A stretch of DNA of 64,000 nucleotides from Verrucomicrobiales bacterium (GTDB taxonomy: Bacteria > Verrucomicrobiota > Verrucomicrobiia > Limisphaerales > SXTU01), in assembly GCA_005791875.1 (NCBI GenBank), contig SXTU01000291.1, forward strand, positions 4,138 through 68,137, written 5' to 3'. A model generated the notes under the pieces. That model worked only from the letters and a program-made list of their open reading frames with translations, was not told the origin of the DNA and ran no database searches. The position numbers and the translations under genes were made by a program. This document shows, piece by piece, positions 1-40,117 of the stretch. Position 1 is the first letter of the stretch. Each line of letters opens with the position of its first letter.

Positions 1-27
1 GATGAAGCTCGTGTCGGCGTAGTTCAC
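1..27 (-). CDS. PIN-domain (VapC-like) toxin, first 9 codons only; gene continues beyond the left edge
   Basis: GTG at 27-25 overlaps the TGA stop (26-24) of the upstream RHH gene (GTGA). The visible codons read V-N-Y-A-D-T-S-F-I, the xxDTSxxI opening typical of PIN toxins. Confidence 0.35.
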
Positions 28-257
28 CGCTCGCCGTCCTCCTCGCGCTGCCGGGCCACGATGCCGCAGGACGCGGGCTTCATGCCCATGCTGTCCAGCC
101 ATTCAAAGTGCTGCTTCCACGTGCGCCGCTTTGCCTGCGCGGCAGCGTCCTTCACCAACTCTTGAAGCAGGCTGTAGGGAGTGTGCCCGCGCACCTTCGC
201 CGCGCGAGCAAAGCTGCGCGCCGTCTTTTCATCCACCCGCGTCTGGAGGAGTGTCAT
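24..257 (-). CDS. Ribbon-helix-helix (CopG/Arc-type) antitoxin-like protein
   Basis: ORF track 24..329. I prefer the ATG at 257 (MTLLQTRVDEKTARSFARAAKVRGHTPYSLLQELVKD), which gives a strand-helix-helix pattern. Its stop overlaps the start of the PIN-like gene. Confidence 0.55.
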   Translation of the reverse strand: MTLLQTRVDEKTARSFARAAKVRGHTPYSLLQELVKDAAAQAKRRTWKQHFEWLDSMGMKPASCGIVARQREEDGER

Positions 258-409
258 ACGCGCGACTGTAATCCTGGAAGCAGCGGAGTCAACATTGCGG
301 CGGGACACCACGGACGCACGCCGAGTCATGGCGGATCACTTGGAGCACCTCTGTCGTGGCGCAAGTCCGGTGAACGCCGCCGCCACAACGATGGCTTCTC
401 CACAGAGTG

Positions 410-781
410 TCAGAGCGGGTGCTGTGCGAAGGTGAACTCTGACACGGGCCGTCCGCCGACGAGGTGTTCCTGGATGATGCGTTCCAAGACCACCGGAGTG
501 CACGAGTGATACCAGATGCCCTCGGGATACACGACCGCGATGGGACCGCGCGCGCAGACTTGGAGGCAGTTGGCCTTCGTGCGATAGACCAGCGCCTGCG
601 GGCCGACAAGGCCCAGCTCCTTCAGCCGGCGCTTGAGATAATCCCACGACTCGATGCTCGCCTCGCGCGGGCTGCACTTGGGCTTGGTCTGGTCTGCGCA
701 TAGGAAGATGTGGCGGCGGAACTTCTCCACGCCCAGCTCTGCGACGAGCCGCTGCAACTCAATTTGCAACTCTGTGTTCAT
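410..781 (-). CDS. Thioredoxin-like [2Fe-2S] ferredoxin family protein
   Basis: 123 aa. The Cys pattern is [11 protein letters not shown] ... NCLQVC (C-x7-C / C-x3-C), with overall resemblance to COG3411-type ferredoxins. The start overlaps the sixA stop by 4 nt. Confidence 0.7.
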
Positions 782-1272
782 GACTGGCGGGTGCCACCCA
801 CTCCGAGCGCTTTTGGGGTGATGAGGAAACTCAGCGAGCCTTCCAGTTTGTCGGAGGTCTTCACACAGGCGACTGCGCCCTTGGACAACTCCAGCGAGTC
901 CGCGCGATCCAAATCGAGCATTCGCCTCACCCGAGCGGAGAGCGACGGCTCGTGGCCGACGAGCAGAACATGGCTCGCCTCCGGGAGTCGGACTAGCCAG
1001 TCGGAAAAGGTGTCGGGGTCCGCCTCGTTCAGCAGGACCGAGACTTCCTGCGCCGTGACCGGCTGCAATTCGTTCGTGATGTCGAGCAGGATGGCCGTGG
1101 TCTGCTTCGCGCGCACGAGCGGGCTGGTGAATGCCAGATCGAAGGCGACTCCGGCACGACGCAGCAGCCGCGCGAGCTTGCGCGCCTGCCGTCGGCCGGT
1201 GGGCGAGAGCGGGCGCTTCGCGTCATCCGCGCCGTCCAGCGCGGCGGCGTGGCGGAGGAAGTAGAGTTTCAT
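778..1272 (-). CDS. sixA: Phosphohistidine phosphatase SixA
   Basis: The internal ATG at 1272 gives [11 protein letters not shown] (RHA catalytic motif), and LVGHEPSL (GHEP motif) follows later. The 28 upstream codons of the track ORF are a translated repeat. Confidence 0.75.
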
Positions 1273-1288
1273 CTCGGACACAAGATTT

Positions 1289-1431
1289 AGAATGACCAAA
1301 GACCAATGACGCAATGCCCAATGAATGCTCAATTTCCAATACCCAATGCCCGGCAAGCGTCTTGCGGCTCCCAGCGCTCCATTGGGCCTTGGTCATTTTT
1401 TGGGCATTGCGTCATTGAGAATTGGTCATTC
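1289..1431. repeat. Heptad-word palindrome, CAATGAC-type words (copy A1)
   Basis: The left arm is gaatgaccaaagaccaatgacgcaatgcccaatgaa... The right arm is ...ttgggcattgcgtcattgagaattggtcattcc, its imperfect reverse complement. It lies between the P1 stop (1436) and the sixA start (1272). Confidence 0.85.
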
Positions 1432-1435
1432 CCCG

Positions 1436-2854
1436 CTACGGCTGCGGCTGAAACACAATCCTGCTGAACGCCCTCGGCGCAAACTCCGCCTTTCCGAAGT
1501 TCGCGCTGCTCGCACGCACGGCCTTCTCTGTCCAGCTTTCCAGCGCAATCGTCAGGCTGCCGCGCCCGGCGAAGAACACGCGGATGTCGCCGGCCTGCAC
1601 CGGCGCGGTCTGCGCGCGGTCGGTGGCGAAGTCCACCTGCCCGATGCGGTCCATGGGTATCTCGATGAAGTTGTCCGCGACTGCGAAGCGCAGCTTGCCG
1701 TCCTTCAGCTCCACCAGGCGGCCTGCGATGGTATCGCGGTTCACCAGGCGACCCACGTCGTTCTTCACGTTGGGCACGAGCGCGGCGACGTTTTCATCGA
1801 GCCGCCCGTCCCACTCGCTGATGCGGAGGTTTGCCAGCCGCATTGGTCCCGAACCCTGATGCACGAGCCGGATGCCGGTGCCCTGGCCGCCGAAGCCCTC
1901 GGTGTCGACCCACTGCTTCGCCAGGACGCCGTTGATGAACACGGTGATGGTCTTCTGCTCGCGGCTGGTCTTGATGCCGATTCGCGCGCGGTTGGTCTGC
2001 TGGAGCTGCGGGATGACGGCCATGCCGAGCTGGCGCACCGGCTCCTTGTGCTTCACGAGCAGGAGCTGCGTGGAGTAGCTATTCAACTGAAGGCTGTAAA
2101 ACCCGCCGAACGGAGGCTCGTCCGCTGTCTGCGCGAGGCGCACGGGCTGGAGCGAATCCGTGTAGAGCGCGATGGCCAGCGCGAACTGCCCCTGCCACGC
2201 GAGGTCGAACTCCAGCGAGGAACTCGGCGGCAGCTTCACGTCGCGCGCGATGGACGCGGGCTGCGTTGCTACAAACGCGCCGTTCACGAAATGCCATTCC
2301 CCGGCAGCGATCACCCCGCCGAGCGCCTTGCCCATCGTCCAGCCTTCCAGCCCGTCCGGCCCGGCGAAGACCGCGCGCGGCGTCGGCCCAGCCGGGCGCA
2401 CGCTGGCGACGCGCGGACGCGGCACCGTCAACGTGCCAGCAAACCACGTCTCCAGCACGAGCTGCTGTTCATTGAGCGACTTGAGGTTGCCGGAGATCTC
2501 GTCGCCGTTGGTGAGGCGGACGAAGCAGAAGTTCGGAGAGTTCGCGGGCGGTGGCAACTGTGCACCGAGGTGGATTTCCGCCAGCGCGGCGGGCTGGAAC
2601 TCAATCGAAGCCGCCGCGTCCGTGTGCCGCCAGCGCAGGCCGGTCGCGGGCGAGATGGACTCAAGCTGGCCGGTGAGAAGGTCGCCGTTGCGGAAGAGGA
2701 GGGCCTGAGGGGTTGAGGCAGAGCCGGCGCCGAGGGTGAGGGCGCTGAGCAGGGCCAGGAGCGTGATGCGTGATGCGTGATGCGTGAATGACGCCGGACA
2801 CCCGCGAGCGACGGCACGCAACACGCAACACGCAACACGCAACACAGCTTTCAT
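1436..2854 (-). CDS. Secreted modular protein, paralog P1 (hypothetical)
   Basis: 472 aa. The ATG at 2854 overlaps the P2 stop (ATGA). The hydrophobic core is ITLLALLSALTLGAGSA. It shares four short modules with P2 and P3 (ETWFAG motif; NxDxxxGxL..DGKL....EIP) flanking a central GLEGW...WxFxNG region that resembles a concanavalin/DUF1080-type jelly roll (weak recall). Confidence 0.7.
   Translation of the reverse strand: MKAVLRVACCVLRAVARGCPASFTHHASRITLLALLSALTLGAGSASTPQALLFRNGDLLTGQLESISPATGLRWRHTDAAASIEFQPAALAEIHLGAQLPPPANSPNFCFVRLTNGDEISGNLKSLNEQQLVLETWFAGTLTVPRPRVASVRPAGPTPRAVFAGPDGLEGWTMGKALGGVIAAGEWHFVNGAFVATQPASIARDVKLPPSSSLEFDLAWQGQFALAIALYTDSLQPVRLAQTADEPPFGGFYSLQLNSYSTQLLLVKHKEPVRQLGMAVIPQLQQTNRARIGIKTSREQKTITVFINGVLAKQWVDTEGFGGQGTGIRLVHQGSGPMRLANLRISEWDGRLDENVAALVPNVKNDVGRLVNRDTIAGRLVELKDGKLRFAVADNFIEIPMDRIGQVDFATDRAQTAPVQAGDIRVFFAGRGSLTIALESWTEKAVRASSANFGKAEFAPRAFSRIVFQPQP
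2761..2845. repeat. Heptad-word palindrome, GCGTGAT / ACACGCA words (copy E1)
   Basis: gcgtgat x3-4, then spacer ..gacgccggacacccgcgagcgac.., then acacgca x4. There is one A:A (or U:U) mismatch per heptad. It lies inside the 5' coding end of P1. Confidence 0.9.
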
Positions 2855-4452
2855 CTCTCGAAAAATTGTTGCAGCTCGGCCCCCATGAACGGGAGGTCCA
2901 GCACCAGCGGTTCACGGCCCGGGTTGAAGCGCAGCATCCGCAGCCAGCGCGCGTCGAGCGCGAGCGGGCCGAAGTGCGGGCTGACGCCGGCAAGCTGCTT
3001 GCCGTCCCAGCGCGGCTGCGTGAACGCGACGGTCTCGCCGCTGCTCAGGTGTGCGTGCGCCTCGCCCGCCGGACGATTCGTTGCGGGCGGAGTGACTGGA
3101 GCGAGGACAACCTGCGTGATCCGGGTGAGGGGAATTTCCAGGCTGCCGGCGGTCGAGGTCAGCGTGAGCTTGCCGTCGCGGATGGCGCGCACGTCGCCCA
3201 ACGCGCGGTCCTGGTTCGCGAGGCGGACGAGATGGCCGGTGAAGTTCGTCGCGACGATTTCTGGCTCGCTGGGGCGGCCGTCCCACGCCGAGACCTTGAC
3301 GCCGCTCAACTGAATTCCGCCCTGGAGCATGTAGAACGAAATGCCCGTCCCCGGCAGTGCCGGGCCGCGCGCGGCAGCGGCGGCGCGAACCGCCTCGGCG
3401 ACGGTCGGCGGCAGATTCGGGTCGAGCGCTGGCACGGCGGGCTTCACTAGGTTCGGGTCGTTCCACTGCTGGATCACGTTGCCGTCCACCACCAGCGTGA
3501 CCGCGCCTGCCAGCAGGTCCGTGCGGATCTCGACACGCATCTTGCGACCCGGCAGCGGCACGGGGATCTGCGCCTGGCCGAGGTGCTGCATTCCGAACTG
3601 GCCCTGCCCGCGCATGAGGTTCACGTAGCCCAGACCGAGGTTGAACTGGTAGCCGCTGGCGGCAAAGTTGAAGCGCTCAACCGCGTCGGTGTAGAGGCTG
3701 AAGTAGAGGTTCAACGCCCCGCTGCTGCCCACCTCGAACTCCACGCGCGACTGCGGGGGGAGCTTGAGGTCGCGGCCCATGAAGGCGTTCGCGCTGCCGG
3801 AGAGCACGCCATCGCGGAACTGCCATGCGGCGGGCGTCGGCCCGGTGGCCCAGCCCTCCAGGCCGTTGGGTCCGTCGTAGAGCGTGGCGAATCCTCGTGC
3901 GAGGAACGCGAGCGACTGCACGCCCGCGCGCGGCGCGCGGAGCTTCCCAGCGAACCACGTCTCCAGCTCGATGTGCGAGGCGTCGAGCGACACGAGGTTG
4001 CCGGTCAGCTCGTCGCCGTTCACGAAGCGGAAGCGGCAGGTGTGGTGCGCGCTGGACTGTGCCGGGGGCGGTGCGGTTTGCGCGAAGCGAATAAGGTGCG
4101 CGTTGTTCGGCAGGAACGCGATGGGCGCAGCGGACGCCGGGTGTTTCCAGCGGATGCCAGCCGGGTCAATCGCCTGCAACGAGCCATGCAACCGGGAGCC
4201 ATCAAGGAACTGAAACACATCTCCATCGGGCGCTGCCGGGCCTGCGAGAGGCGCGAAAATCTGCGCATGGCCGGGCGGGGGAGCAAAAACCTTCGGTGCC
4301 GGGCGAGGGGCGGGAGGTTGGATCAAGTTCTGTGCGCAGAGCGGAAGTGCGGTGGCGAGCAGGAGCGCGGCGAGCAGGAAGTAATTAGTGATTACTGATA
4401 AGTAATTGGTGATCCGGGTCGAGAGCGGGCTGGCATCCGGCTGGTCACTCAT
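2851..4452 (-). CDS. Secreted modular protein, paralog P2 (hypothetical)
   Basis: 533 aa from ATG 4452 (MSDQPDASPLSTRITNYLSVITNYFLLAALLLATALPLCAQ); the track start is 4527. It has the same module order as P1 and P3 (FVNGDELTGNLVSLD...ETWFAG; NGLEGW; NQDRALGDVRAIRDGKL...EIPL). Confidence 0.7.
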   Translation of the reverse strand: MSDQPDASPLSTRITNYLSVITNYFLLAALLLATALPLCAQNLIQPPAPRPAPKVFAPPPGHAQIFAPLAGPAAPDGDVFQFLDGSRLHGSLQAIDPAGIRWKHPASAAPIAFLPNNAHLIRFAQTAPPPAQSSAHHTCRFRFVNGDELTGNLVSLDASHIELETWFAGKLRAPRAGVQSLAFLARGFATLYDGPNGLEGWATGPTPAAWQFRDGVLSGSANAFMGRDLKLPPQSRVEFEVGSSGALNLYFSLYTDAVERFNFAASGYQFNLGLGYVNLMRGQGQFGMQHLGQAQIPVPLPGRKMRVEIRTDLLAGAVTLVVDGNVIQQWNDPNLVKPAVPALDPNLPPTVAEAVRAAAAARGPALPGTGISFYMLQGGIQLSGVKVSAWDGRPSEPEIVATNFTGHLVRLANQDRALGDVRAIRDGKLTLTSTAGSLEIPLTRITQVVLAPVTPPATNRPAGEAHAHLSSGETVAFTQPRWDGKQLAGVSPHFGPLALDARWLRMLRFNPGREPLVLDLPFMGAELQQFFER

Positions 4453-4481
4453 CGCTAAACACTGATCACTTATTACTGAGC
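4379..4481. repeat. Heptad-word palindrome, AT-rich AGTAATT/AGTGATT words (copy F1)
   Basis: The left arm is agtaatt agtgatt actgata agtaatt ggtgatc. The right arm is ggtcactcatcgctaaacactgatcacttattactgagc. The palindrome spans the P2 start codon (4452-4450). Confidence 0.8.
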
Positions 4482-4511
4482 ATTTCTTCACGCGCGCGGG
4501 AATAGAAGCCC

Positions 4512-7241
4512 TCACGGCCCGCCCCATTCATCCACCGGACCGCGCGGCGTGGAGGGGTTGAAACGCAGCGCGCGGATGGACTCCGGCTTGAGCGTCAGCC
4601 GGCCAAACACGGGGCTGACGGCGGTGACCTCGCCCGGCCCCCACTTCTCCAGCGACAGCGTGAGCCGCTCGTTGCGGTGCAGTGTGACCTGGACGCCCTC
4701 GACCTTCGGCAGCTCCGGCGCAGCGTTTACCGGGAAGGCGATAAGCGCCGCGCGCGTCAGGGGAATCTCCAGCTTCGCGCCCGCCGGGTTGAACGCGAGC
4801 TTGCCATCACGAATGCCGTGCAGCGTGCCTGTCGCGCGGTCCTGGTTCACGAACTCCACGACGGCGGTGTCGGGCGGCGGCACTTCCACAAGCTTGTCAG
4901 GATCGGCTCCCGGCGCGCCCAGCGGTTCGCGATCGCGGTCCACGCGGCCGTCCCACGGCGTGATGCGGATGTCACTGACGCGGACGCGGGAGTTGGAGTT
5001 GTAGTTATAGAAGACTACGCCGGTGCCGGGACCGGGCGAGCCCATGCCCTTCCACTCGTGGACCTTCTCGCCGTCGGCCAGCATCGTGGTGATCTCGGTC
5101 TCCGTGTTGACGAGGAAGGTGAGGCGCACCGTGCTCTTGTTGAGCATCTGCGGCACGCGCGCCCCGCTGGAACTGGTGGCACCGGCACCGGAGCGGCGCA
5201 TCGAGTAGATGTAGCCGGAGGACGATGTGTAGAACTGCCAGCCGTCGCTGAAGTCGAACTGCTCCGTGTTGCGCGTGAAGAACGAGAAGCGGAAGAAGGG
5301 CTGGCCCTTCCACGCCATGTCGAACTCGATGCGCGCCTTCGTGGGCAGATTGCACTCGCGCCCGAGCGTGCCCACGGCAGTCCCGTAATACGCGCCGTCG
5401 CGGAAGGTCCACGCGGCGTTCGTGTTCGCGGTGGCGGCGCGGCCGGCGAGCGCGGCCTCTGCGCCGGCGGCCCCGACGACGTTCAGGTTGTTCAACTGCA
5501 ACGCACCGAGCGCGCGGACCCGCGCCTCGGCGAGCGCGTTGGCATGCGCCACCACGAGCGCGCCCATGCCGAGATCCGCCTGCGCCTGCGCAAGCTGCTG
5601 ATCAAGTTCACGCGTCTCGGCCACGCCAGCACCCGCCGCGAGCGTCTGCAAAAGCCGCGCGCCCAACTGCGCGGCCTCGGCCTTCATCAGAGACTTGAAG
5701 CGCGTCTCCTTTGCCTTGTCCCGCGCGACAGCGGCGGCGTCCGTGAAGTCCTCGAACCAACGCGAGAGCGCGCGTTCGGAGGCGACATCCGCGTCCACGG
5801 CGGCGCGCACCAGGTCGGATTTGATGAACTCGCCAGCCGCCGCGGCCTTCTGCGCGGTCTCGACGAACTTCATGATGGCGGCGACTGCGTGCGGCTGGAT
5901 GGCAGCGGGTGCCGCCGCTACTGCCCGCACGCCGCCGAGCAGGTCATAGGTCCGCGTGAGCGCGATGGCTGAAGGGTCGTTCTTCAAATGCGCCAACTCG
6001 CGCAGCAAACGGCTCGTGAGCAGCGCGCCTTCGCGGCGGATGACAGTGCGCTGATCGCTCCCGCCCTCGGCCTGCTTCTCCAAGTCAGCCTTAATGGCCG
6101 GCGCTTTGACCAGGCCGGCCTCGATTGCGAGCAGAACCAAATCGGTCTTCAGGTAGTCGGCCACCGTGGCGGCCAAGCGGGCGCGGGATGCCATCGTGGA
6201 AATCTCGGGCACTGTGGGCTTCTTGTTGAAGGCGGGCGCGGGCGCGGGGTCGCCGGGTGCAAGCTTCGGTGGCGGCAATGGCGGGCGCTCGCCGGGTTGG
6301 GGAAGCTCCTTGAGCTTGCGATCCACTTCCGCCTTCACTGCCTGCGCGGCTAGGTCCACGGCGGACGCTAGCGGAGGCTCGGCGCGTTTCGGTAGGACGC
6401 GGATGGGCAGGACGGGCCGCGGTGGCGCTTTCGGATCAACCGCGTTGGCCGGCTGCTTCGCCGCTGCCTCTTCCATTTCCTTCAGCCGCAATTCCAAAGC
6501 CTGCTTCAAGACGGGTGAGCCTTTCTCGCCGAGCTTCGCTATCTCCTCCTTGAGCTGGATCACGGCTTCCTGCGGCGTCGGCTCCACGACCGGCCGGGCT
6601 GGTGCCGCGAAGCGAATGGCGGGCATGAAATTCACATTGTTGCCGGCGGCATCGAACCCGATTCGGTTCACGGTGGCGGAGCCGGTGCTGACCTTCCACT
6701 CGTCCGCCGCGCGCGGGCCGTCGTAGAGCGCGGACTGGCTGCTGCCGTAGAAAGACAGGCTCGCCAGCCCCGAGCGCTGGCCGCGCAACCGCCCGGCGAA
6801 CCAGGTCTCGATCTCGAAGCTCTCGCCATCGAGCGACAGCAACTGCCCCTCGAACTCGTCGCCGCTGGCGAGCTGCACTCGGCAGACAGGCGCGGAATTG
6901 GTCGGCAGCGCCAGCGCGCGCGCGGGCATGCGGATGCTGTTCAGGTTCGTGGTGGTGAACTCGATGGGCTGCCGGGCGTTGGGATGCCGCCACTTGAGCG
7001 TCTCGCTGTTCAGAGACTCGATCTCCCCGCGCAGGAAGGAGCTGTCGAGGAAGGAGACGGTGGCGGGGGGGAGGTTGGTGGCGGGCAGGTTTGTTGAACC
7101 AGCCAGCAGCGCAAAAAGAAGATAACTTCCAATGTTCAACTTCCAACGCTCAACGTGCGAAGGCGCGCACTTGGACGTTGAACGTTGAACGTTGAGCGTT
7201 GAGCGTTTTCCGACTCCAAGTTGAAGCTTCCTACCGTTCAT
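4512..7241 (-). CDS. Secreted modular protein, paralog P3 (hypothetical), with long Ala/Pro/Lys/Glu-rich insert
   Basis: 909 aa. The ATG at 7241 overlaps the 3' end of the upstream gene by 11 nt. The core is SYLLFALLAGS. It has the same terminal modules as P1 and P2 (LASGDEFEGQLLSLD..ETWFAG; NQDRATGTLHGIRDGKL..EIPL) plus a ~400-aa low-complexity insert after module 2. Confidence 0.7.
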   Translation of the reverse strand: MNGRKLQLGVGKRSTLNVQRSTSKCAPSHVERWKLNIGSYLLFALLAGSTNLPATNLPPATVSFLDSSFLRGEIESLNSETLKWRHPNARQPIEFTTTNLNSIRMPARALALPTNSAPVCRVQLASGDEFEGQLLSLDGESFEIETWFAGRLRGQRSGLASLSFYGSSQSALYDGPRAADEWKVSTGSATVNRIGFDAAGNNVNFMPAIRFAAPARPVVEPTPQEAVIQLKEEIAKLGEKGSPVLKQALELRLKEMEEAAAKQPANAVDPKAPPRPVLPIRVLPKRAEPPLASAVDLAAQAVKAEVDRKLKELPQPGERPPLPPPKLAPGDPAPAPAFNKKPTVPEISTMASRARLAATVADYLKTDLVLLAIEAGLVKAPAIKADLEKQAEGGSDQRTVIRREGALLTSRLLRELAHLKNDPSAIALTRTYDLLGGVRAVAAAPAAIQPHAVAAIMKFVETAQKAAAAGEFIKSDLVRAAVDADVASERALSRWFEDFTDAAAVARDKAKETRFKSLMKAEAAQLGARLLQTLAAGAGVAETRELDQQLAQAQADLGMGALVVAHANALAEARVRALGALQLNNLNVVGAAGAEAALAGRAATANTNAAWTFRDGAYYGTAVGTLGRECNLPTKARIEFDMAWKGQPFFRFSFFTRNTEQFDFSDGWQFYTSSSGYIYSMRRSGAGATSSSGARVPQMLNKSTVRLTFLVNTETEITTMLADGEKVHEWKGMGSPGPGTGVVFYNYNSNSRVRVSDIRITPWDGRVDRDREPLGAPGADPDKLVEVPPPDTAVVEFVNQDRATGTLHGIRDGKLAFNPAGAKLEIPLTRAALIAFPVNAAPELPKVEGVQVTLHRNERLTLSLEKWGPGEVTAVSPVFGRLTLKPESIRALRFNPSTPRGPVDEWGGP
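7127..7207. repeat. Heptad-word palindrome, ACGTTGA words (copy D1)
   Basis: ttccaatgttcaacttccaacgctcaacgtgc, then spacer gaaggcgcgcac, then ttggacgttgaacgttgaacgttgagcgttgagcgtt. It lies inside the 5' coding end of P3. Confidence 0.85.
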
Positions 7242-8271
7242 AAATGGGCAGGAACCGGTAGTTCAACGCCAGCGACAGCAGCGACGCCGCCGTGCCGAAG
7301 GAATTTCCAAACGACCCGTCCCAACTCCCGTCCTTGTTCTGCGTGGCGGCGAGGGACTTGATGTTCGCGCCGTTCCACTTGCGCCACGCGTCCGGCGAGC
7401 TGTGGAAGTAAGCCTGCGCCGCGTAGTAGAGGTAGTATTGCTGGTAGTGCGCGTCGCCAGCGGCGGTCTGGAGATACTGCCACGCGCCCTTGAACTCCGC
7501 CGTGTCCTTCCGTTTCGCCAGCGCCTGGACGAGCACGCCGATGGCGCACCGCGTCGCGTTCGGCCCGCTCGCGCCGGTGTAGCCGTAACCGCCCTCGGGA
7601 GTTTTGCAGCTCGTGAAATACTTGAGGCCCTTCTGAATCGCATCCTCCGGCACCGCGAGGCCCGCGTTGCGCGCGGCGAACATCGCGACCATCTGCGCGC
7701 CACTCACGGTCGTGTCCGCGTCCGAGCTTTCCGGCGAGTAGCGCCAGCCGCCGTGTGGGTTGCGCGCCTGCGAGGCGACGATGAGGTTGATGGCGCGCTG
7801 GAGCGCCGGGCCGAGCCGGGCGTCCTCCACCGCACCGTAGGCTTCTGCTAGCGCGAGGGCACCGAAGCCGTGGTTATACATCGAGGTGCCGATGTAGCCG
7901 GTGTCCTTGTTCTGCTGCGCGAGCAGGGCGTTCAGCCCGCGTTTGATGGCCGACGCGTAAGGGCCCACGTTCGGGTCGTCGCCGTGCGCGAGCATCGCCA
8001 CCACGCACAGGCCGATGACGCCCGGCTGCCGCCCATACACATCCGCCCACGCGCCCTCCGCCGACTGCGACTTGATGAGATACTGCAAGCCCTTCACATA
8101 CATCACGTCAATCGCCGCCGGGCTGGCGTCGGACTTCTCGATGAAGAGCTGTTGGGCGGAGGCTTCGCAGAATGACCAAGGCCCAATGACCAAGGCCCAA
8201 AGAATAACCAATGACCGGAGCGCGGCGTTCACGCTGCAGAAGGTTCCGATCAGCAAAAGGCGCAAGGACAT
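7231..8271 (-). CDS. Prenyltransferase/squalene-oxidase-repeat (alpha/alpha-toroid) family protein, secreted
   Basis: I prefer ATG 8271 (MSLRLLLIG...). The track start, GTG 8334, overlaps the upstream stop as GTGA. Repeated motifs AEGAWAD, PHGGWRY, PEGGYGY and KDGSWDGSFG occur at roughly regular spacing, as in terpenoid-cyclase-like repeats. Confidence 0.65.
   Translation of the reverse strand: MSLRLLLIGTFCSVNAALRSLVILWALVIGPWSFCEASAQQLFIEKSDASPAAIDVMYVKGLQYLIKSQSAEGAWADVYGRQPGVIGLCVVAMLAHGDDPNVGPYASAIKRGLNALLAQQNKDTGYIGTSMYNHGFGALALAEAYGAVEDARLGPALQRAINLIVASQARNPHGGWRYSPESSDADTTVSGAQMVAMFAARNAGLAVPEDAIQKGLKYFTSCKTPEGGYGYTGASGPNATRCAIGVLVQALAKRKDTAEFKGAWQYLQTAAGDAHYQQYYLYYAAQAYFHSSPDAWRKWNGANIKSLAATQNKDGSWDGSFGNSFGTAASLLSLALNYRFLPIYER
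8171..8219. repeat. Single (unpaired) arm of CAATGAC-type heptads inside a CDS
   Basis: aatgacc aaggccc aatgacc aaggccc aaagaat aaccaat gaccgga. It translates as LVILWALVIGPWS within the signal-peptide region of the 7231..8271 gene. Confidence 0.8.
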
Positions 8272-8330
8272 ATTCAGACAGCCGGACGTTGCTGCGGCCT
8301 GAAGGCCGCGCTCCACTGACGCCTTCGCGC

Positions 8331-11300
8331 TCACGGCTTCGCCTCCACGGCCTTGAAGAAGTTCTCCAGCGCCTCGCGGAACTCCGCCGGCACCTGCCGC
8401 GTCACGCCGCTGCCTTTGCCGGTGCGGCGCGCCGCCGCCTCGGCTCCACGCGCGTCGCCAACCGTGCCCGCGCTGGCCTTGTCGGTGTTGCCGCCGTTTT
8501 GATTCGGACCGCCGGGCTGCTGGCCGGGCTTCATGCCGATTTGCGCCTCCTGCTGCGCCATCTGCATCATCATCTCGGCCTCCGCCTGCGCCTGCTGCTG
8601 TTGCTGGCCGTCCTTGGGCTTCTGCCGCTTGGCCTGCTCGTTGATGAGATTGATGAGGTCGGTCAAGTTCAGCAGCGCGTCGTTCTCCGGCTTCTGCGCG
8701 GGATCACCGGTGAGCTTGTCGAAGAGAGCTGACTCCGCGTCGCGCATGCCGTCCTGCGTGTTGAGCAAGAACTCCTTCGCCTCCTCGATGTCGTTGCTCA
8801 TCTGCAATTTGGTCAGGTCGCCGCGCAGCGCACGCTGTTGCTCCCCGACCTTCAGCGCCCCTTCGGCGTAGCGGGGGTTCTGCGCCTTCTCCTCTTCGAG
8901 CAGCATCGTCTGCTGCAACACCCGCATCTCGCCCCCGCGCAGCCGGATCGCCGCCATCAACATCTTGAGCAACTTGTCCTCCTTCGGCTGGCCCTCGCCT
9001 TCGCCTCCGCCGCTTTCCTCCTCCGGCGGCTCCAGCTTCTTCGACCAGCCGGCAAAGCGCTTCGTCCAAGTCGCGAGGTTGCCCATTGCGTCCATCGAGA
9101 TGTTCGCGTCAATCAGCCCGCGCACGCGGTCGAGCTCGTTGGGCGTGTTGACCTCCTTCATCTCCTTGGCGACCTCGCCGTAGTTCGCGCGCTGTGTGCG
9201 GTCGAAGAACCGGCTCATCTCCGCCACGACCTTCTCCGCCTCCACCTTCACGCCGCCTTGGTCGCCGGCCAGCGACGTGTTGATTTTCTTGTAACGCTCC
9301 GGCAGCTCGCTCGGCAGCAGGCCGATGGTCTCGCCCACCACCTTGCCGAGCTGCTCGCCCAGGCCCTTCTCCGACTCCGAAAGTTTCTTCAGCCGCTGTG
9401 ACAGCGTGAGCGCCTGCAAGTTGTCGAGGCCGTCGTTCATCTTCTTCTGGAGCGCCTGCAATTTCTCCAGCGCCTTCTCCTCCGCCTCAAGCGCCTTGGT
9501 CGCCTCGTCCGCGCGGTCCTTTGCCTCGCTGCTCTCCTGCGCTTTTTGGAGCGCTTGCTGCGCGTCCTTCATGTCCCCCTTCGCAAGCGACTTCATCTGC
9601 GCAAGGTTCTGCGTCCACTCGCGGAGCGTCTGCTGCGTGAGCGTCGGGTTGCGCATCGCCTCGCGCACGATGTCCTGACCCTGCTCCGCGATGCGGTCGA
9701 GTTGCGCGGCGTTGCGCGCCTGCTCGTCGGCCTGCTCGCCGGCCTTCTTCGCAGCCTCGTCGGACTTGAGCTTGTCCTCTGGCAATCCCATCAACTCGCG
9801 TGTCGCGGCGGTGATGGCTTCCTCCTTGCGCGTGACTTCCTCGACCTGTGCGAAGAGCGCGTCCAGCTGCTGCCGCACCAACTCTGCATGCTTGGAGAGG
9901 CTGACGATGTTGATGCGATGCGTGACTGACTCCGCCGGCTCGCGGCCCGGGAGGAAGTCCGTGGCCAGACCCTTCACCTCGACGACCGAGTCCGCCGGGA
10001 TGCGCATGACCGTGGGGCTGAACATGAACGTGTTCGTGAAGCGGCGCTCCTGCGCGCCCGTCGCCGACTTCCTGAACTGCGCAATCGCCGGCGTGTTCGT
10101 CGGGTCGAGCGACGCGACAATCTCGGAGGTGACTGCGCCTTCGCGCACGCCGAAGTCATCCGATGCGGAGAACCTCAGCGGCAGCACATCGGTCTCGAGA
10201 ATCGAAACCTCCATGCCGAGGTCGCCGAGGTCCACGCGTGGCGCGCCGTCCTTCATCGGGCGCAAGGCCAGCAGCCAAGGCGCGATGGGCTTCAGTCCGA
10301 ACTCATCCCGCCAATCGAACGTGGCCTGCGACGACGCGTCGAGCTTGAGCGAGCCACTATTGAACTTCTCGCCCGAGAGCAGCAGCGACACCGGCTCGGT
10401 CTTGTCCACCGTCACCTCCGCCGACGCAAGCGGGCGCGTGGCGGTGCCGGCCAGCGTGACGCGGCTGCCTTCGAGCACGGGCAACGTGGCGTTCTGCACG
10501 ACTTGGTTCGTCGCCGGGTATTGCAAGTAAGCCGGGAGTGCGACATTCGCCGCGAGCTGCTTGAGTGCGGGGCGGTGCAACGGCTTCACCGCGATGGTGT
10601 GCGTGGCGTCGCCGAGGCGGACGCGGAGCGAACCGTTCTGCGTCTGGCCGGGGATGGTGAGCTTGGCCGAGCCGTTCTTCACCGGCGCGGAAAGTTTGGA
10701 CTGCAACTCAAAGCGCCCGCTCGCGCTCGCGGGCTTCCAGAACGAGCGGTAAGTCACCTTGGCCACCAGCTCGAACGGCTCACCATGCGGCACGACGAGC
10801 TGCGCCGGCACGTTCTCGAGCGTGATGAACGTGTAGCGCGGAATGCCGGCGACCGGCACCGCCCAACGCTGAAGCGCGTTCCAACCCGCAGCTGGCGCGA
10901 CGGCGAACGCAAGCACCACCGGCACCAGCCCCGCCGCGAGCGCGATGCTCGCGAGCCGCGCGGGCCGGGAGTTCACCACCTCGAGGAAATCAAACTTCGC
11001 CGCGTCCGCCGAGACTTGCCGGATGGCCGCGCGGCAGAGCGCGAGCGACATGTTCTGCGGTCGCTGTTTCTCCTCCGCGAGTTCCACGATGCCCAGCAAC
11101 CGGTCGCCGAGCCGGCGATGCCCGTGCTGCACGACGTTCGACAACGCCCGCAAGTCGCGCCGCTGCCAAATCCAGCTCCGACACCACCGCACCGCAAACC
11201 ACGCCGCACCCGCGAGCCCCGCAAGCAACAGCGCCGTGCGCAGCGCCTTCGGCGTGTCCCCGACACGGTCGCACAGGAAGAGCAGCGCGAACGAAGCTGC

Positions 11301-11420
11301 CAGCGCCGCGACCCCGCCGGCCACCGCGTGCGTCGTCTCCGTCCGCCACAGCGCGCGCTCCAGCGCCGCGAACTGAGCGCGCAACGAGTCAGGCAGGGAG
11401 ATGCGGTTATCGGAGGCCAT
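8331..11420 (-). CDS. Large membrane protein with coiled-coil C-terminal half (DUF4175-like, unverified)
   Basis: 1029 aa from ATG 11420 (MASDNRISLPDS). It has three hydrophobic spans near the N-terminus, a beta-rich middle, and a ~450-aa Glu/Lys/Gln/Ala-rich region ending VPAEFREALENFFKAV. The track fuses it to the upstream gene as one 1285-aa ORF. Confidence 0.65.
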   Translation of the reverse strand: MASDNRISLPDSLRAQFAALERALWRTETTHAVAGGVAALAASFALLFLCDRVGDTPKALRTALLLAGLAGAAWFAVRWCRSWIWQRRDLRALSNVVQHGHRRLGDRLLGIVELAEEKQRPQNMSLALCRAAIRQVSADAAKFDFLEVVNSRPARLASIALAAGLVPVVLAFAVAPAAGWNALQRWAVPVAGIPRYTFITLENVPAQLVVPHGEPFELVAKVTYRSFWKPASASGRFELQSKLSAPVKNGSAKLTIPGQTQNGSLRVRLGDATHTIAVKPLHRPALKQLAANVALPAYLQYPATNQVVQNATLPVLEGSRVTLAGTATRPLASAEVTVDKTEPVSLLLSGEKFNSGSLKLDASSQATFDWRDEFGLKPIAPWLLALRPMKDGAPRVDLGDLGMEVSILETDVLPLRFSASDDFGVREGAVTSEIVASLDPTNTPAIAQFRKSATGAQERRFTNTFMFSPTVMRIPADSVVEVKGLATDFLPGREPAESVTHRINIVSLSKHAELVRQQLDALFAQVEEVTRKEEAITAATRELMGLPEDKLKSDEAAKKAGEQADEQARNAAQLDRIAEQGQDIVREAMRNPTLTQQTLREWTQNLAQMKSLAKGDMKDAQQALQKAQESSEAKDRADEATKALEAEEKALEKLQALQKKMNDGLDNLQALTLSQRLKKLSESEKGLGEQLGKVVGETIGLLPSELPERYKKINTSLAGDQGGVKVEAEKVVAEMSRFFDRTQRANYGEVAKEMKEVNTPNELDRVRGLIDANISMDAMGNLATWTKRFAGWSKKLEPPEEESGGGEGEGQPKEDKLLKMLMAAIRLRGGEMRVLQQTMLLEEEKAQNPRYAEGALKVGEQQRALRGDLTKLQMSNDIEEAKEFLLNTQDGMRDAESALFDKLTGDPAQKPENDALLNLTDLINLINEQAKRQKPKDGQQQQQAQAEAEMMMQMAQQEAQIGMKPGQQPGGPNQNGGNTDKASAGTVGDARGAEAAARRTGKGSGVTRQVPAEFREALENFFKAVEAKP

Positions 11421-11486
11421 TGGAATGTCTGACGGACTGTAACACCCGGTTGCTCCGTCACAATCCCCAAGTTCCCTGAGCCAGCG

Positions 11487-11590
11487 CCCGTGCCGGCGTG
11501 CTTCCAGCCGCCGTCTGCGGGCCACAGCAATTCGAGCGACGCTCAAGCACTCAACCCCCAACACGGCGGCTGGAAGCCGCCGGCACGGGC
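11487..11590. repeat. MITE-like unit with ~28-bp terminal inverted repeats carrying a mini-hairpin
   Basis: gcccgtgccggcgtgcttccagccgccgt ... acggcggctggaagccgccggcacgggc. It sits exactly between the DUF1501-like C-terminus and the next gene start. Confidence 0.85.
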
Positions 11591-12846
11591 CGCATCCCCA
11601 CAGCCCGCGCAGCTTCTCCTTCTCCGTCAGCCCCAGCGGGAATTTCTTCGCATGCGCGTGCGTGGCGATACCAGCGAACTCCCGCAATGCCTCGTGGATG
11701 TGCTCGGGGCGAATCTTCAGGCCCTTCTTCTTGTCCAGCGCAAGCGTCGCCGGGTTCAGGTTCACGCCGAACTGCTTCTCGTCCGTTGCGCCGATGACGC
11801 GGTTGCCCTTGATGCCGGGGGCGAGGAACATCACCGAGCCGATGGACCAGTAGTCTTTGCCGTTGCCCTTGTTGTAAGTCGGCGTGCGGCCCATCTCGCT
11901 CTGGATGACGATGACGAGCTTGTCCCGAATCTTCAGCGCCTCGGCCCGGCGGATGACGTAGGCGATGCCGGCGAGGAACTCGGGGATGAGCTTCATCTGG
12001 TCCACGTCGTTGTTCTGATGGCTGTCGAACTGGCCGATGCTCAGGTTCGCCGAGACGCAGACGCCGGCCTTGAACGACGCCAGCGCAATCTCCGCCTGCT
12101 GCGCGAGCCGCTCCTTGGGCACGTCCTTGGGAATGTGTGGCGTGACGCGCGCCATCGTCTTCGAGTTCACCTGCGCCGCGTAGAGCATGGACTCGGCGGC
12201 TCCGCAGCTCGCGCTGTTCCGCCAGCGCCTGCTCGATGCGCGTGAGCGCGAAGTCCTCGTGGTAGGGCGAGCGCAGGTTGCCCTCGATGTGGTCGGCGTT
12301 CGCGATTTTCTGGAGCGACGGCAGATACGGCACGCGCGACATCGCGACGACGTTGCCCGTGGCCGAGTAGTTGCCGAAGGTGAGGAACGAGAGCGGGCAG
12401 GTCGGCCCCTTCGCGGCGGCCACGAGCGCGGCGAAGGTCGGGTAGGCGAGGCTGTCGAGCTTGCCGGTGGCCATGTAGCGCGCGCCGGGCGCGTGGTTGT
12501 TCACCGAGTAGTCGAGGCCGTTGAACGTGAGCAGCTCGGAGCCGAACTCGGCGTAGAACTCCTCGTTGCTCATGCCGCCAGTCTTGTGCTTGTCCGTCGG
12601 CGCGAATTTGTCCGCGCCTTTCGTGAGGATGTCGCCCTCCTTGTAGAGGTGGTTCATCTCGTTGACGCCCTTGGGGTCAATCAAGTAGGTCGTGTCCCAG
12701 CCGCCCGAGGCGTTGAAGACGATGTAGAACAGCCCCTCGTAAGGAGGCTCCTCCTTCACCGCCGCGCGCAGCAGCGAGGTCATGCCACCGGGGCAGGCGA
12801 AGTCAAGGCCGGTGAGGGCGCAGAGTTTTAGGAAATCACGTCGCAT
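11591..12846 (-). pseudogene. DUF1501-like protein, disrupted by a +1 frame change and lacking its own stop
   Basis: It has a Tat-like start MRRDFLKLCALTG (ATG 12846). About 215 aa sit in one frame (FNASGGWDTTY ... SPYHEDFALTRIEQALAEQRELRS). The protein-like signal then moves to the frame of ORF 8331..12188 (YAAQVNSKTMARV ... QFDSHQNN ... SEMGRTPTYN), with the switch between about 12189 and 12215. Confidence 0.55.
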
Positions 12847-12979
12847 AAAAATCTGGCGTGATCGGCGTTGTTCCAAACGCTGGCCGTCAAGAAATACGCC
12901 GCCCGTTTCGGAGAATCAGAGGCTGGTCTGAGCAGGCACGCGGCTTGCCCGCAAGTGGCGGCGGGTGTAAAGAAGGTCC

Positions 12980-13120
12980 ATGCAAACAAGCATTGACCTC
13001 GACGAAGAGCTGCTTGACGAGGTGGCGAAGGCGGAAGGCCTGAACCTCAGGCCCACCCCGTCACGCTGCTGGCGGAGGCGAATCGGAAGCATGACCAATT
13101 ACCCAATGACCAATGAATGA
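12980..13120 (+). pseudogene. VapB-like (DUF2191-type) antitoxin fragment
   Basis: The 46-codon ORF MQTSIDLDEELLDEVAKAEGLN... matches the MxTxIDIDDELLxEA opening of VapB antitoxins. After about 22 aa it degenerates and runs into repeat A2. No toxin gene follows. Confidence 0.3.
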
Positions 13121-13247
13121 CCAATTGCCCAAGCCCAACCGGAGGGCGTCGTTGGGCGTTGACCTTGTGAAAACTCGTGGTTTTCGCATGGCCAGGGAGC
13201 ATTGGGCATTCTTTGGTCATTGAACATTGGGGACTGGTCATTCTCCC
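13091..13247. repeat. Heptad-word palindrome, CAATGAC-type words (copy A2)
   Basis: atgaccaattacccaatgaccaatgaatgaccaattgccc ... attgggcattctttggtcattgaacattggggactggtcattctccc. It ends 1 nt before the eda ATG. Confidence 0.85.
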
Positions 13248-13901
13248 ATGCGCAACCAATCTGAAATCTCCGCCCTCCTCACCCACCCCGGCGTCATCGC
13301 GGTGGTTCGCACGCAGCGGCCGGAGCAGGTGCTGCCGCTCTGCGCCGCGCTCGTGGACGGCGGCCTCACCGCGCTGGAAATCACCTTCACCGTGCCCAAC
13401 GCCTGCGAGGTTGTCGCGGCGGTGGTGAAGGAGTTCGGCGACCGCGCCACCGTCGGCGTCGGCACCGTGCTGACGGCGCTCCAGCTCCAGTCCGCGCTCG
13501 CCGCGGGCGCGGAGTTCTTCGTCACGCCCATCTGCCGGCCGGAGCTGGTGCCGCTGGCGCACGCGGCGGGCCGGCCCATCATGCTCGGCGCCTACACGCC
13601 CACTGAGGCGCAGCTCGCGCACGAGGCCGGCGCGGACTTCGTAAAACTCTTCCCCGCCGACAACCACGGCCCGAAAGGCGTCCGCGCCTTCCGCGCGCCG
13701 CTGCCGCACCTGCGCATCGTCCCCACCGGCGGCGCCACGCTGGCGAATGCGGGTGAGTTCATCAAAGCCGGCTGCGCCGCCGTGGGCGTCGGCAGCACCT
13801 TGCTCACGGCGGAAATCCTGGCGAAGAACGACTGGCCTGCGCTGCGAAAGCTCGCGGCGGATTACGTCGCGGCGGTGAAGGCGGCGCGTCAGCCCGCGTA
13901 G
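13248..13901 (+). CDS. eda: KHG/KDPG aldolase (4-hydroxy-2-oxoglutarate / 2-dehydro-3-deoxyphosphogluconate aldolase)
   Basis: ATG 13248; the track start, TTG 13227, lies in the repeat. The sequence IAVVRT...GGLTALEITFTVPNA...GVGTVL...FFVTP...GAYTPTEA...GADFVKLFPA is characteristic of Eda. Confidence 0.85.
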   Translation: MRNQSEISALLTHPGVIAVVRTQRPEQVLPLCAALVDGGLTALEITFTVPNACEVVAAVVKEFGDRATVGVGTVLTALQLQSALAAGAEFFVTPICRPELVPLAHAAGRPIMLGAYTPTEAQLAHEAGADFVKLFPADNHGPKGVRAFRAPLPHLRIVPTGGATLANAGEFIKAGCAAVGVGSTLLTAEILAKNDWPALRKLAADYVAAVKAARQPA

Positions 13902-18631: not shown

Positions 18632-19234
18632 TCACTTGCCGCTGTTCAGATACTTGTTGAGCAGCAGGCCGGTGATGGCGTTGAGCGTCTCGAAGACGCC
18701 CTCGCACTTGGGCGCGATGGCGGGGAAGCTCGGCACCTGCACGTCGCGGTTGTTCAGGAGGAAGTCCATGTATTCGACCGGCGCGGGGTTGGCGGAGTCG
18801 CGCTTGTTGTATTGGAGGACGTAGGGGATGTCGGCCAGGTTGAGCTTCAGCGTCTTGAGGTTGTCCTCCATGTTTTTCAGGCTTTCGACGTTCTCCTCCA
18901 TCTTCTCGTAGGTGGAGTCGGCGACGAAGACCAGGCCGTCCACGCCGCGCAGCACGAGCTGGCGCGTGGTGTTGTAGATAACCTGGCCGGGGACTGTGTA
19001 GAGCTGGAACTTGGTCTTGTAGCCCTTGATGGTGACTGTCTCCAGCGGGAAGAAGTCGAAGAAGAGCGTGCGGTCCGAGCTGGTAGCCAGGGAGACGATC
19101 TTGGTCTTGCTCTCCGGGTTGGCGGTCTGGACGTTGCCGTAGATGGACTCGAGGTTGGTCGTCTTGCCGGACTTGGCGGGGCCGTAATAGACGATCTTGA
19201 CCTGCAGTTCCTTGGTGGCTTGGTGGTGAAACAT
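18632..19234 (-). CDS. mglA: MglA-type Ras-like small GTPase
   Basis: KIVYYGPAKSGKTTN (P-loop), YTVPGQ (Thr in place of the Ras Asp, the MglA hallmark) and YNKRD (NKxD). Confidence 0.85.
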   Translation of the reverse strand: MFHHQATKELQVKIVYYGPAKSGKTTNLESIYGNVQTANPESKTKIVSLATSSDRTLFFDFFPLETVTIKGYKTKFQLYTVPGQVIYNTTRQLVLRGVDGLVFVADSTYEKMEENVESLKNMEDNLKTLKLNLADIPYVLQYNKRDSANPAPVEYMDFLLNNRDVQVPSFPAIAPKCEGVFETLNAITGLLLNKYLNSGK

Positions 19235-29432: not shown

Positions 29433-29470
29433 GTCAATGTGGCTTCGACGAAGCTTACCAGCGGGACGGT

Positions 29471-32377: not shown

Positions 32378-32486
32378 TTTTTGGCCATGTCTTCGACGCG
32401 CCCGGTTGAAACGATGTTTCAAGTATTTCCCCGAACCAGGTGCCACGCAAGCGCGCTGCCGACCTCACGCCCCCTCAGCGCGTGGC

Positions 32487-33455: not shown

Positions 33456-33467
33456 TGGGGAAGTAAT

Positions 33468-33547
33468 CAGTGTTCAGTGTTCAGCGTTCGGGGGGCGGTG
33501 GTCAGCAGGTCGCGCTCGGGCAACTGAATGCTGAATACTGAATACTC
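33468..33547. repeat. Heptad-word palindrome, AGTGTTC / GAATACT words (copy C1)
   Basis: cagtgttcagtgttcagcgttc, then spacer gggggg...gggcaact, then gaatgctgaatactgaatactc. The arm mismatches are G:T on the + strand. It lies between an upstream stop (33550) and the VWA start (33455). Confidence 0.9.
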
Positions 33548-33549
33548 TT

Positions 33550-34380: not shown

Positions 34381-34384
34381 CGCG

Positions 34385-35245: not shown

Positions 35246-35254
35246 GAACGGAAA

Positions 35255-36259: not shown

Positions 36260-36291
36260 CAAATGTGAGTTCGGTTCTGAAGGGGTTGAGA

Positions 36292-39879: not shown

Positions 39880-39891
39880 AACGCGCTCCTC

Positions 39892-40017
39892 CTCCCTCTC
39901 CCTTCCTCGGAGGAGGGGAGAGGGTTGGGGTGAGGGGTTCTGTGCGTCGGCGCAAGTGGCCCCACCCCTCATCCGGCCTGCGGCCACCTTCTCCCCTCCT
40001 CCGAGGAAGGGAGAAGG
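39892..40017. repeat. Nested palindromic repeat (CTCCCTTCCTCGGAGGAGGGGAG core + GGGGTGAGGGG/CCCCACCCCTC)
   Basis: Two inverted copies of a core that is itself self-complementary. When translated it gives PSPxLRGxGE-type low-complexity peptide. It lies upstream of the signal core of the 36292..39879 gene. Confidence 0.8.
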
Positions 40018-40117
40018 CGCGTGGCGTGGCGTCTGGTTGGTAGCGAGGCTGGCAGTGGAGCGAAGTGATTTCATGGACTGGAAAATCTGGCAGGCGATGA
40101 AGTGAATGGGAACCCCG

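Follow-up and report, generated by a model that had tools for sequence, protein, structure and literature searches.

A conserved Verrucomicrobiota gene unit encoding lectin-like and Sm-like barrel proteins, and its possible tie to MoxR/Bat-type operons

Positions 1436 to 11420 on the minus strand of a 64,000-nucleotide stretch of contig SXTU01000291.1, from a Verrucomicrobiales bacterium (the whole stretch is referred to here as the window), carry five intact genes that form a conserved unit. In order of reading these encode a DUF4175-like membrane protein, a 367-amino-acid (aa) alpha/alpha-toroid protein (PREN) and three paralogues of a family that no current model describes (P3, P2 and P1). 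In many relatives the unit forms the tail of a MoxR-DUF58-BatA operon – an arrangement overlooked by the original prediction, which had been made from the letters of the window. We propose, with about as much belief as doubt, that the unit encodes the extracytoplasmic half of a Verrucomicrobial cell-envelope system of the MoxR/Bat type, in which the P proteins would serve as ligand-binding adaptors. What is already known is a poorly understood class of MoxR/Bat operons; what is new is the abundant and unmodelled P family at the operon tail.

The unit and its neighbours across the Verrucomicrobiota

Gene order was compared using one genome per GTDB species, which gave 80 orthologous loci (designated by L numbers), each count being taken only where the available flank sufficed. 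The order DUF4175-like, PREN, P2-like, P1-like is kept in most of these 80 Verrucomicrobiota species: a P2-like copy lies directly upstream of a P1-like copy in 73 of 74, PREN precedes the P genes in 64 of 67, and a DUF4175-like gene is found upstream in 47 of 52. The functional association originally suggested for these genes therefore withstands a comparison of gene order across the phylum. Because P2 is almost always the best match of the upstream copy and P1 that of the downstream copy, the duplication that gave rise to the pair is old and its order fixed. There is one clear exception: in L002 (7730-11356) a P2-P1 pair stands beside a CBM9-domain protein, with neither toroid nor DUF4175-like gene. 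In a further, divergent locus, L090 (6344-11832), PREN is followed by a P protein of 500 aa and a double-P fusion of 943 aa, while a DUF4175-like gene is missing upstream, and since toroid and P proteins are retained together there, theirs is the tightest linkage within the unit. Nearly all of the 80 loci bear the name of the Verrucomicrobiota or of one of its subgroups. Some loci in the range L007-L086 are labelled Klebsiella, Akkermansia muciniphila, Proteobacteria or Methylomirabilota; their gene content and order are Verrucomicrobiota-like, and the labels probably reflect mislabelling or misbinning.

The open reading frames (ORFs) listed for the minus strand of the window from 1436 to 12876 are P1, P2, P3, a 367-aa ORF, a 1285-aa ORF and an overlapping 441-aa ORF (Table 1). 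The content of guanine plus cytosine (GC) is about 64-70% in the region of the unit, and third-position GC is high in all of these ORFs, as it is in real genes of the genome. Successive genes overlap by 4 nucleotides (nt) at 8331-8334 (GTGA), by 11 nt at 7231-7241 and by 4 nt at 2851-2854 (ATGA), precisely where these junctions had first been noticed, and the same 4/11/4-nt overlaps recur in L087, whose proteins are ~43-64% identical to those of the window. The conservation of overlapping junctions in distant orthologous loci makes co-transcription, earlier judged likely, a plausible conclusion; a scan of positions 1-13500 for promoter and terminator consensus sequences returned nothing above shuffled expectation. 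The window is 99.8% identical at the nucleotide level to two metagenome assemblies of Limisphaerales type (GCA_005801235.1 and ERZ27257033). Downstream of P1, on the same strand, are a histidine-phosphatase gene (778-1356) and a gene for a 123-aa protein (410-781, minus strand); both are kept in this position only in the close clade, and in L012 they lie upstream and on the other strand.

The other side of the unit could be read in the 29 loci that show 3.5 kb or more of upstream sequence. Of these, 12 carry, directly upstream and on the same strand, genes for a BatA-domain protein of ~670 aa and for a ~730-aa protein (X730) with weak VWA and GATase1-like matches; the upstream neighbours of the remaining loci are unrelated. 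On two long contigs (L087 and L088) the full order can be read as MoxR (AAA_3/bpMoxR)-DUF58/VWA_2-BatA-X730-DUF4175-like-PREN-P(-P). The contiguous MoxR, DUF58/VWA_2, BatA and weak-VWA genes of the orthologous loci are shared with operons of the Bat/RL3499 type – Bat of Bacteroides, RL3499-RL3502 of Rhizobium leguminosarum and bb0170-bb0176 of Borrelia – and in both cases the components are membrane-anchored and periplasm-facing. No TPR (BatC), BatD or SH3 (BatE) protein was seen in the present analysis; we know of no PREN toroid or P-family protein in any described MoxR-DUF58-BatA operon.

An envelope-integrity or stress role has been reported or proposed for operons of this kind (PMC3893208, PMC5700661). 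The MRP-type MoxR operon RL3499 of Rhizobium is connected with membrane integrity and cell morphology in the account that PMC3893208 gives of Vanderlinde 2011, a study whose title is also cited in PMC5118466 and PMC5700661; the MoxR operon of Francisella is connected with stress tolerance (PMC3893208), and the Bat operon of Bacteroides with aerotolerance (PMC5700661). In Borrelia the BatA-type protein BB0173 resides in the inner membrane and has its VWA domain in the periplasm (PMC5700661). Taken together, the conserved order, the overlapping junctions, the gene fusions described below and the frequent attachment to MoxR-DUF58-BatA genes establish the five intact genes as a functional module with a link to a system of the MoxR/Bat type.

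Attachment to MoxR and VWA genes admits a different interpretation, given that MoxR-VWA modules form part of some nucleoside-triphosphate-dependent conflict systems (PMC7159879) and that the bpMoxR Pfam model matches the MoxR proteins of L087 and L088: the unit might belong to an anti-phage or other biological-conflict system. We regard this as very improbable, because none of the five proteins has a PADLOC match and because the P proteins carry export-type signals. Nor was any effector-type domain (nuclease, protease or pore-former) recognised, and the gene order is kept phylum-wide in varied chromosomal housekeeping contexts as opposed to patchy defence islands.

The unit was initially described as a six-gene operon beginning with a DUF1501-like gene; it comprises five intact genes, and the sixth is a pseudogene that lies outside it. 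Three-frame translation places the start of this DUF1501-type gene, with a twin-arginine-type N-terminus, at 12846. An extra base at 12201 causes a +1 frameshift, beyond which the gene runs in the frame of the long ORF, and its C-terminal half makes up the first ~190 aa of the 1285-aa ORF (PF07394, 1.2e-12). Intact orthologues, mostly of 427-430 aa, end in '...LRGLWG'; in the window the codon that follows this motif is TGC and not a stop, with the result that the frame continues for 58 codons into the next gene. Once the frame is corrected, identity to intact PF07394-carrying orthologues is 78-91% along the full length of the protein: the family assignment stands, the status of intact operon gene does not.

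Sequencing error can be excluded as the cause of the frameshift. Two other assemblies, set apart from the window by 12-27 differences in 12.8 kb, have the site as well, additional contigs also carry the composite ORF of 1285 aa, and lesions shared among independent assemblies of the species must be real. Among the 80 species loci no other species has DUF1501 adjacent to the unit; an intact orthologue found elsewhere follows its usual PSD-type partner (791 aa) and has ribosomal genes as neighbours. Synteny and gene decay thus rule out DUF1501 as an operon member, and the remnant is presumably a decayed passenger. A consequence concerns the next gene, predicted as a giant membrane protein with a coiled coil. 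Its membrane and coiled-coil character agrees with the predictions given below, but the 1285-aa ORF is a composite: the true start is the ATG at 11420, giving 1029 aa against 1028-1036 aa in orthologues. In a relative with a DUF4175-like protein of 91% identity (89% for the DNA), nucleotide homology reaches no farther than ~60 nt ahead of this ATG.

Several other features of the window can be recorded here. The PSD-type partner gene that usually accompanies DUF1501 is missing beside the remnant; by contrast, a canonical planctomycete-type pair is found at 28005-32446 (minus strand), where an intact PSCyt1/PSCyt2/PSD1 protein with Golvesin_C (991 aa) precedes an intact DUF1501 protein (507 aa). 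A second decayed gene, encoding a Pec_lyase-like (alpha/alpha toroid) protein, lies at 44926-46671 (minus strand) and is interrupted by a TAA codon in frame (45661-45663), with Pfam model positions 1-88 before the stop and 127-219 after it. A separate MoxR cluster, 20 kb from the unit at 32487-42410 (minus strand), contains a VWA_2 gene (41319-42410), genes for two ~210-aa proteins, a gene for a 1359-aa protein with no Pfam match (36292-40371), MoxR AAA_3 (~35255-36250), DUF58 (34385-35245), a gene for a 276-aa protein and a VWA gene (32487-33455); it was considered as the missing partner of the unit, and BatA and X730 from the orthologous operons have no detectable homologues in it. Finally, a small Ras/Arf-like GTPase gene (200 aa; 18632-19234, minus strand) stands beside a gene for a 468-aa protein with no Pfam match.

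Table 1. Coordinates of genes, reading frames and predicted domains at the locus (positions in the window)
Feature	Position	Strand	Description
P1	1436..2854	-	472 aa; predicted signal-like N-terminus and ConA-like jelly roll between two pairs of Sm/SH3-like barrels
P2	2851..4527	-	558 aa, or 533 aa with ATG at 4452; architecture as P1
P3	4512..7241	-	909 aa; third paralogue, close clade only
PREN	7231..8334	-	367 aa; exported-type single alpha/alpha toroid, prenyltransferase/terpene-cyclase type
DUF4175-like protein	8331..11420	-	1029 aa; membrane and coiled-coil
Composite ORF	8331-12188	-	1285 aa
Overlapping ORF	11551-12876	-	441 aa
DUF1501-family pseudogene	11595..12846	-	TGC in place of stop at 11592-11594
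P1 N1	2561..2716	-	residues 47-98; predicted Sm/SH3-like small beta-barrel
P1 N2	2384..2539	-	residues 106-157; predicted Sm/SH3-like barrel with 'VRLTNGDEISGNL...ETWFAG' motif
P1 core	1772..2383	-	residues 158-361; predicted ConA-like lectin/glucanase jelly roll
P1 C1	1622..1771	-	residues 362-411; repeat type of N1/N2
P1 C2	1445..1597	-	residues 420-470; predicted divergent fourth barrel
P3 insert	5406..6665	-	residues 193-612, ~420 aa, Ala/Pro/Lys/Glu-rich

The P family and its predicted folds

The three terminal genes are paralogues (32% and 23% identity to P1; tblastn E 1e-64 and lower). Hidden Markov models (HMMs) of each module and of the core match P1, P2 and P3, and nothing else in a six-frame translation of the window, in agreement with the single architecture originally ascribed to them. 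That this architecture belongs to no recognised family also holds: no Pfam-A or NCBIfam model covers P1-P3, searches of the three proteins against Pfam and NCBIfam gave nothing at E≤0.1, none of 78 aligned family members reaches a Pfam or NCBIfam threshold, and the family profile has no meaningful match among PDB sequences. A protein collection clustered at 90% holds 349 homologues of P1, and every named one is 'hypothetical' apart from a single JGI record (P0055) labelled 'sRNA-binding regulator protein Hfq'. Against 1.84 billion representatives the profile matched 3601 clusters (50% identity) at E≤1e-3 and 954 at E≤1e-30, the latter delimiting a large unmodelled protein family.

P1 is the distal and best-conserved paralogue, with conservation of 42-52% across the phylum. 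Residues invariant in the family include W172, W187, F216, Y253, W315 and W348. A hydrophobic region precedes the first module in 76 of the 78 members and is itself preceded by Lys or Arg in 74 of those 76, a pattern typical of export signals; within the window this N-terminal segment is strongest in P2. Natural P2::P1 fusions (P0241, P0244, P0245 and P0257) are joined by a linker and have no second signal segment, and a multi-unit variant, P0376, packs four units into 1850 aa. The insert of P3, correctly identified at the outset as a stretch of some 400 residues rich in Ala, Pro, Lys and Glu, is 23% Ala, and these four residues make up 43% of it against 24% elsewhere. Its position is inside the jelly roll and not between domains: it follows the first strand, and the core HMM matches from position 8 on, past the insert. 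It evolves fast (only 31-58% identity among close relatives) and was detected in 12 of the 80 species loci, all with P1 identity of at least 63%.

These features bring to mind the surface of the cell. Export-type N-termini, a lectin domain combined with tandem small barrels in adhesin-like multi-unit chains, the fast-evolving low-complexity insert of P3 and the fact that MoxR proteins are chaperones that mature dedicated complexes (PMC3893208) would all fit P proteins that are cargo – an adhesin or coat component as the end product, its assembly chaperoned by MoxR and VWA proteins – instead of periplasmic tethers. We think this the less probable course, while granting it a real minority chance: neither secretion-system genes nor a PEP-CTERM signal, a type IX secretion system (T9SS) C-terminal domain, an autotransporter or a lipobox were seen in the unit, P1 is strongly conserved across the phylum for a protein exposed at the surface, and the partner proteins are predicted to be anchored in the inner membrane.

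The folds were approached through AlphaFold2 (AF2) models. That of P1, built from a 78-sequence alignment, has a predicted local distance difference test (pLDDT) score of 89.4 and a predicted template modelling (pTM) score of 0.75. Foldseek returned 191 PDB matches at E≤1e-3. Those to the P1 core include YesU (1oq1; template modelling score, TMt, 0.63), CBM66 (4b1m; TMt 0.67), Emp46p (2a6w) and BT3469 (4jqt), as well as the lectin-like subdomain of clostridial neurotoxins, these five lying between E 1e-7 and 1e-5; the compact matches 1oq1, 4b1m and 2a6w superpose with a root-mean-square deviation (rmsd) of 3.8-5.2 A and TMt of 0.57-0.68. Longer, multi-domain Foldseek alignments of P1 give poor global superposition, and for this reason only the jelly roll of P1 can be said to match. 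On the model, then, the central domain is a concanavalin A (ConA)-like lectin/glucanase jelly roll, and the jelly-roll-like domain first suspected at this position gains lectin, carbohydrate-binding module (CBM) and glycoside hydrolase (GH) folds as relatives. A core fold of ~200 residues is shared with YesU/DUF1961, CBM66, the L-type lectin Emp46p, the putative glycosyl hydrolase BT3469/4jqt and clostridial neurotoxin Hcn. At the level of sequence the P core matches neither a Pfam family nor a PDB chain: among the 78 members no match to DUF1080, Laminin_G, GH16 or CBM66 appears at E≤1, and no PDB chain is found by sequence. The strand pattern 'GW...WxFxDG...EFD' is one that we take to resemble DUF1080.

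Folds of this kind raise the possibility that the P proteins serve nutrient acquisition as exported carbohydrate-active or carbohydrate-binding proteins with lectin domains like those of DUF1080, GH16 or CBMs, with PREN as a glycan-processing alpha/alpha-barrel partner and the MoxR/Bat link incidental. Among the folds closest to the core are CBM66, the BT1760 endo-levanase accessory domain, BT3469 and YesU; the P2-P1 pair of L002 adjoins a CBM9-domain protein in a locus devoid of PREN and DUF4175-like genes; rhamnosidase or GH95 genes lie near the L090 and L001 loci; and PREN has a weak Pec_lyase match. Set against this are the absence of any GH, CBM or DUF1080 Pfam match in the 78 members at E≤1, the lack of an identified catalytic motif and the variability of flanking genes between loci. 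The recurrent company of the unit – the membrane coiled-coil protein in nearly all species, BatA with X730 in 12 of 29 loci, MoxR with DUF58 in two – is moreover atypical for polysaccharide-utilisation genes, and we judge this explanation unlikely.

The small modules had been thought impossible to assign and had been treated as two kinds, one at each end of the protein. Neither point is upheld. Profile-profile comparison (hhalign) relates N1 to C1 with a probability of 96.7%, N1 to N2 with 93.8% and N2 to C1 with 97.1%, making the three homologous, and the C1 HMM matches the N2 position at 1.2e-7. Comparison of C2 with the other modules by hhalign was not significant; C2 shows a five-strand pattern in the AF2 model, and in the distant locus L090 there is a weak C1-HMM match at the C2 position (7.9e-4). 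The model of the N1-N2 tandem (pLDDT 90.9) shows a five-strand bent barrel, and its top 50 Foldseek matches are all Hfq, with rmsd of 1.5-1.9 A over 49-51 residues, TMt of 0.58-0.69 and E of 6e-3 to 1.5e-2. By sequence, the tandem profile finds its best PDB match (E 0.19) in an archaeal Lsm protein, where it aligns with the Sm1-like motif, and the commonest weak Pfam matches in the family, all sub-threshold, are RimP_C-SH3 (17 of 78 members), Hfq (15 of 78; best E 1.5e-4) and LSM (13 of 78; best E 5e-3). No Hfq or LSM match reaches significance, and no Pfam cut-off is attained, in any of the 78 members.

Because the superposition on Hfq is joined by three agreeing sequence-level results, we assign the modules, as modelled, to divergent small beta-barrels of the Sm/Hfq/SH3 type, not members of the Hfq family. 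What they have in common with Sm/LSm/Hfq proteins and the SH3-like C-terminal domain of RimP is the five-strand bent barrel and an Sm1-like motif, 'h-x-L-x-N-G-D-x-h-x-G-x-L'. They differ from Sm/LSm/Hfq proteins in that they are of exported type by sequence, number four per chain, flank a lectin domain and reach no curated cut-off; DSSP finds no helix before strand 1 of the model, where Sm proteins have an N-terminal helix, and nothing so far points to rings or RNA binding.

A cytoplasmic RNA-binding role exercised through these modules might nonetheless be argued from the uniform Hfq matches of the tandem, from the recurrent sub-threshold Hfq and LSM matches and from the JGI record that names a homologue Hfq. 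We give this scarcely any credence, since the export-type hydrophobic N-terminus is almost universal in the family; the missing helix, the failure to attain any Pfam cut-off, the poor best PDB sequence E-value, the lectin-type domain that the modules flank and the membrane or periplasmic nature of the gene neighbours all point the same way. A functional analogy for the P modules may be offered by secreted bacterial proteins with tandem SH3-fold domains (SH3b and bacterial chromo-like), which likewise place tandem small beta-barrels in exported proteins, although the weak matches of the P modules point to Sm-like families instead. One proposal is that such secreted barrels attach to peptidoglycan or to peptides of the matrix and act as anchors for partner domains (PMC5906684).

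The toroid and the DUF4175-like protein

PREN had been described as prenyltransferase-like, and this is confirmed by a match to PF13243 above its cut-off (41.0 bits against 26.1; 1.6e-10, residues 112-250) and by a PDB match to residues 467-600 of squalene-hopene cyclase (7e-6). It differs from that enzyme in being a single toroid of ~300 residues with an export-type hydrophobic anchor at residues 26-60, and as a full two-domain cyclase it falls far below the equivalog cut-off (TIGR01507, 40 bits against 431). The DxDD motif of the cyclase, which we take to be residues 374-377, lies outside the region matched by PREN. Judged by its sequence, PREN is most likely a non-catalytic binding scaffold.

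The DUF4175-like protein has transmembrane (TM) segments predicted by hydropathy at residues 32-50, 59-77 and 156-174, followed by a beta-rich region (~190-500), a charged helical or coiled-coil region (~500-960) and a Q-rich tail. Residues 500-1000 consist to 34-45% of E, K, Q, R and D, and their PDB matches are designed coiled coils. Its description as DUF4175-like is acceptable in the sense of a remote relative: PF13779 is the top weak Pfam match in 8 of 30 orthologues (best 4e-5), and one 85%-identical homologue has a precomputed PF13779 match. The likeness to DUF4175 (PF13779)/TIGR02302 proteins consists in N-terminal TM segments followed by a long low-complexity or coiled-coil region and, in the orthologous loci, in a gene placed after a BatA-type gene in a MoxR operon; the protein of the window differs by an extra beta-rich region of ~300 residues. 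A search of the literature for DUF4175, DUF4159 and TIGRFAM names found tangential mentions only (A. baumannii AdvA; R. sphaeroides RSP_0730 among CenR binding-motif sites).

A possible envelope complex

How might these proteins work together? In the arrangement that we favour, three TM helices would hold the DUF4175-like protein in the inner membrane, and the protein would project its beta-rich region and a coiled coil of ~450 residues into the periplasm, where PREN and the P proteins would be delivered by their N-terminal export-type segments. Each P protein would present a ConA-like lectin domain flanked by four Sm/SH3-like barrels. P2 and P1, together with P3 in the close clade, could form a hetero-oligomeric adaptor that, with PREN, docks on the coiled-coil stalk; lectin domains and barrels would then bind glycan and peptide ligands of the cell wall or outer membrane, and the complex would tie the layers of the envelope to one another. 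MoxR and VWA proteins may assemble or remodel this complex from the membrane side. The expected phenotype would concern envelope integrity and cell shape, as for the RL3499-RL3502 operon of Rhizobium.

A number of observations weigh against this proposal. Unlike Bat/RL3499-type operons, the locus in the window has no MoxR, DUF58 or BatA gene beside the unit, and tblastn with the BatA (670 aa) and 730-aa proteins of L001 as queries found nothing in the window. More generally the unit is often detached from MoxR genes – it stands alone in ~60% of species – and MoxR coupling is therefore not obligatory. Calls of localisation come from a hydropathy heuristic, and what points to hetero-oligomerisation is the existence of fusions and the conserved gene order. 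The kinship of the window protein to DUF4175 would be remote and sub-threshold, there being no PF13779 match at E≤10 and no TIGR02302 match in that protein; that RL3502 is itself a DUF4175/TIGR02302 protein is an assumption.

A bolder version of the proposal deserves mention as a long shot. The eight to twelve Sm-like barrels of P2, P1 and P3 might associate edge-to-edge, in the manner of Sm and Hfq subunits, into a closed or helical periplasmic hetero-oligomer, with the lectin domains arrayed around the DUF4175-like stalk. This would amount to a new, Verrucomicrobiota-specific envelope-spanning structure assembled by MoxR, and would make the P family a new exported class of Sm-like proteins.

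MoxR/Bat operons are widespread, and in several bacteria their mutants have stress or envelope phenotypes. In the Verrucomicrobiota such operons are extended by what appears to be a conserved exported module, and this module – a coiled-coil membrane protein, a toroid and a lectin/Sm-like pair – supplies concrete candidates for their interaction partners and ligands. If the predicted localisation is confirmed, an exported setting would be added to those in which the Sm-like barrel occurs. Should the idea of an envelope tether prove true, it would help to explain the envelope architecture of an abundant but poorly cultured phylum of soil and freshwater.

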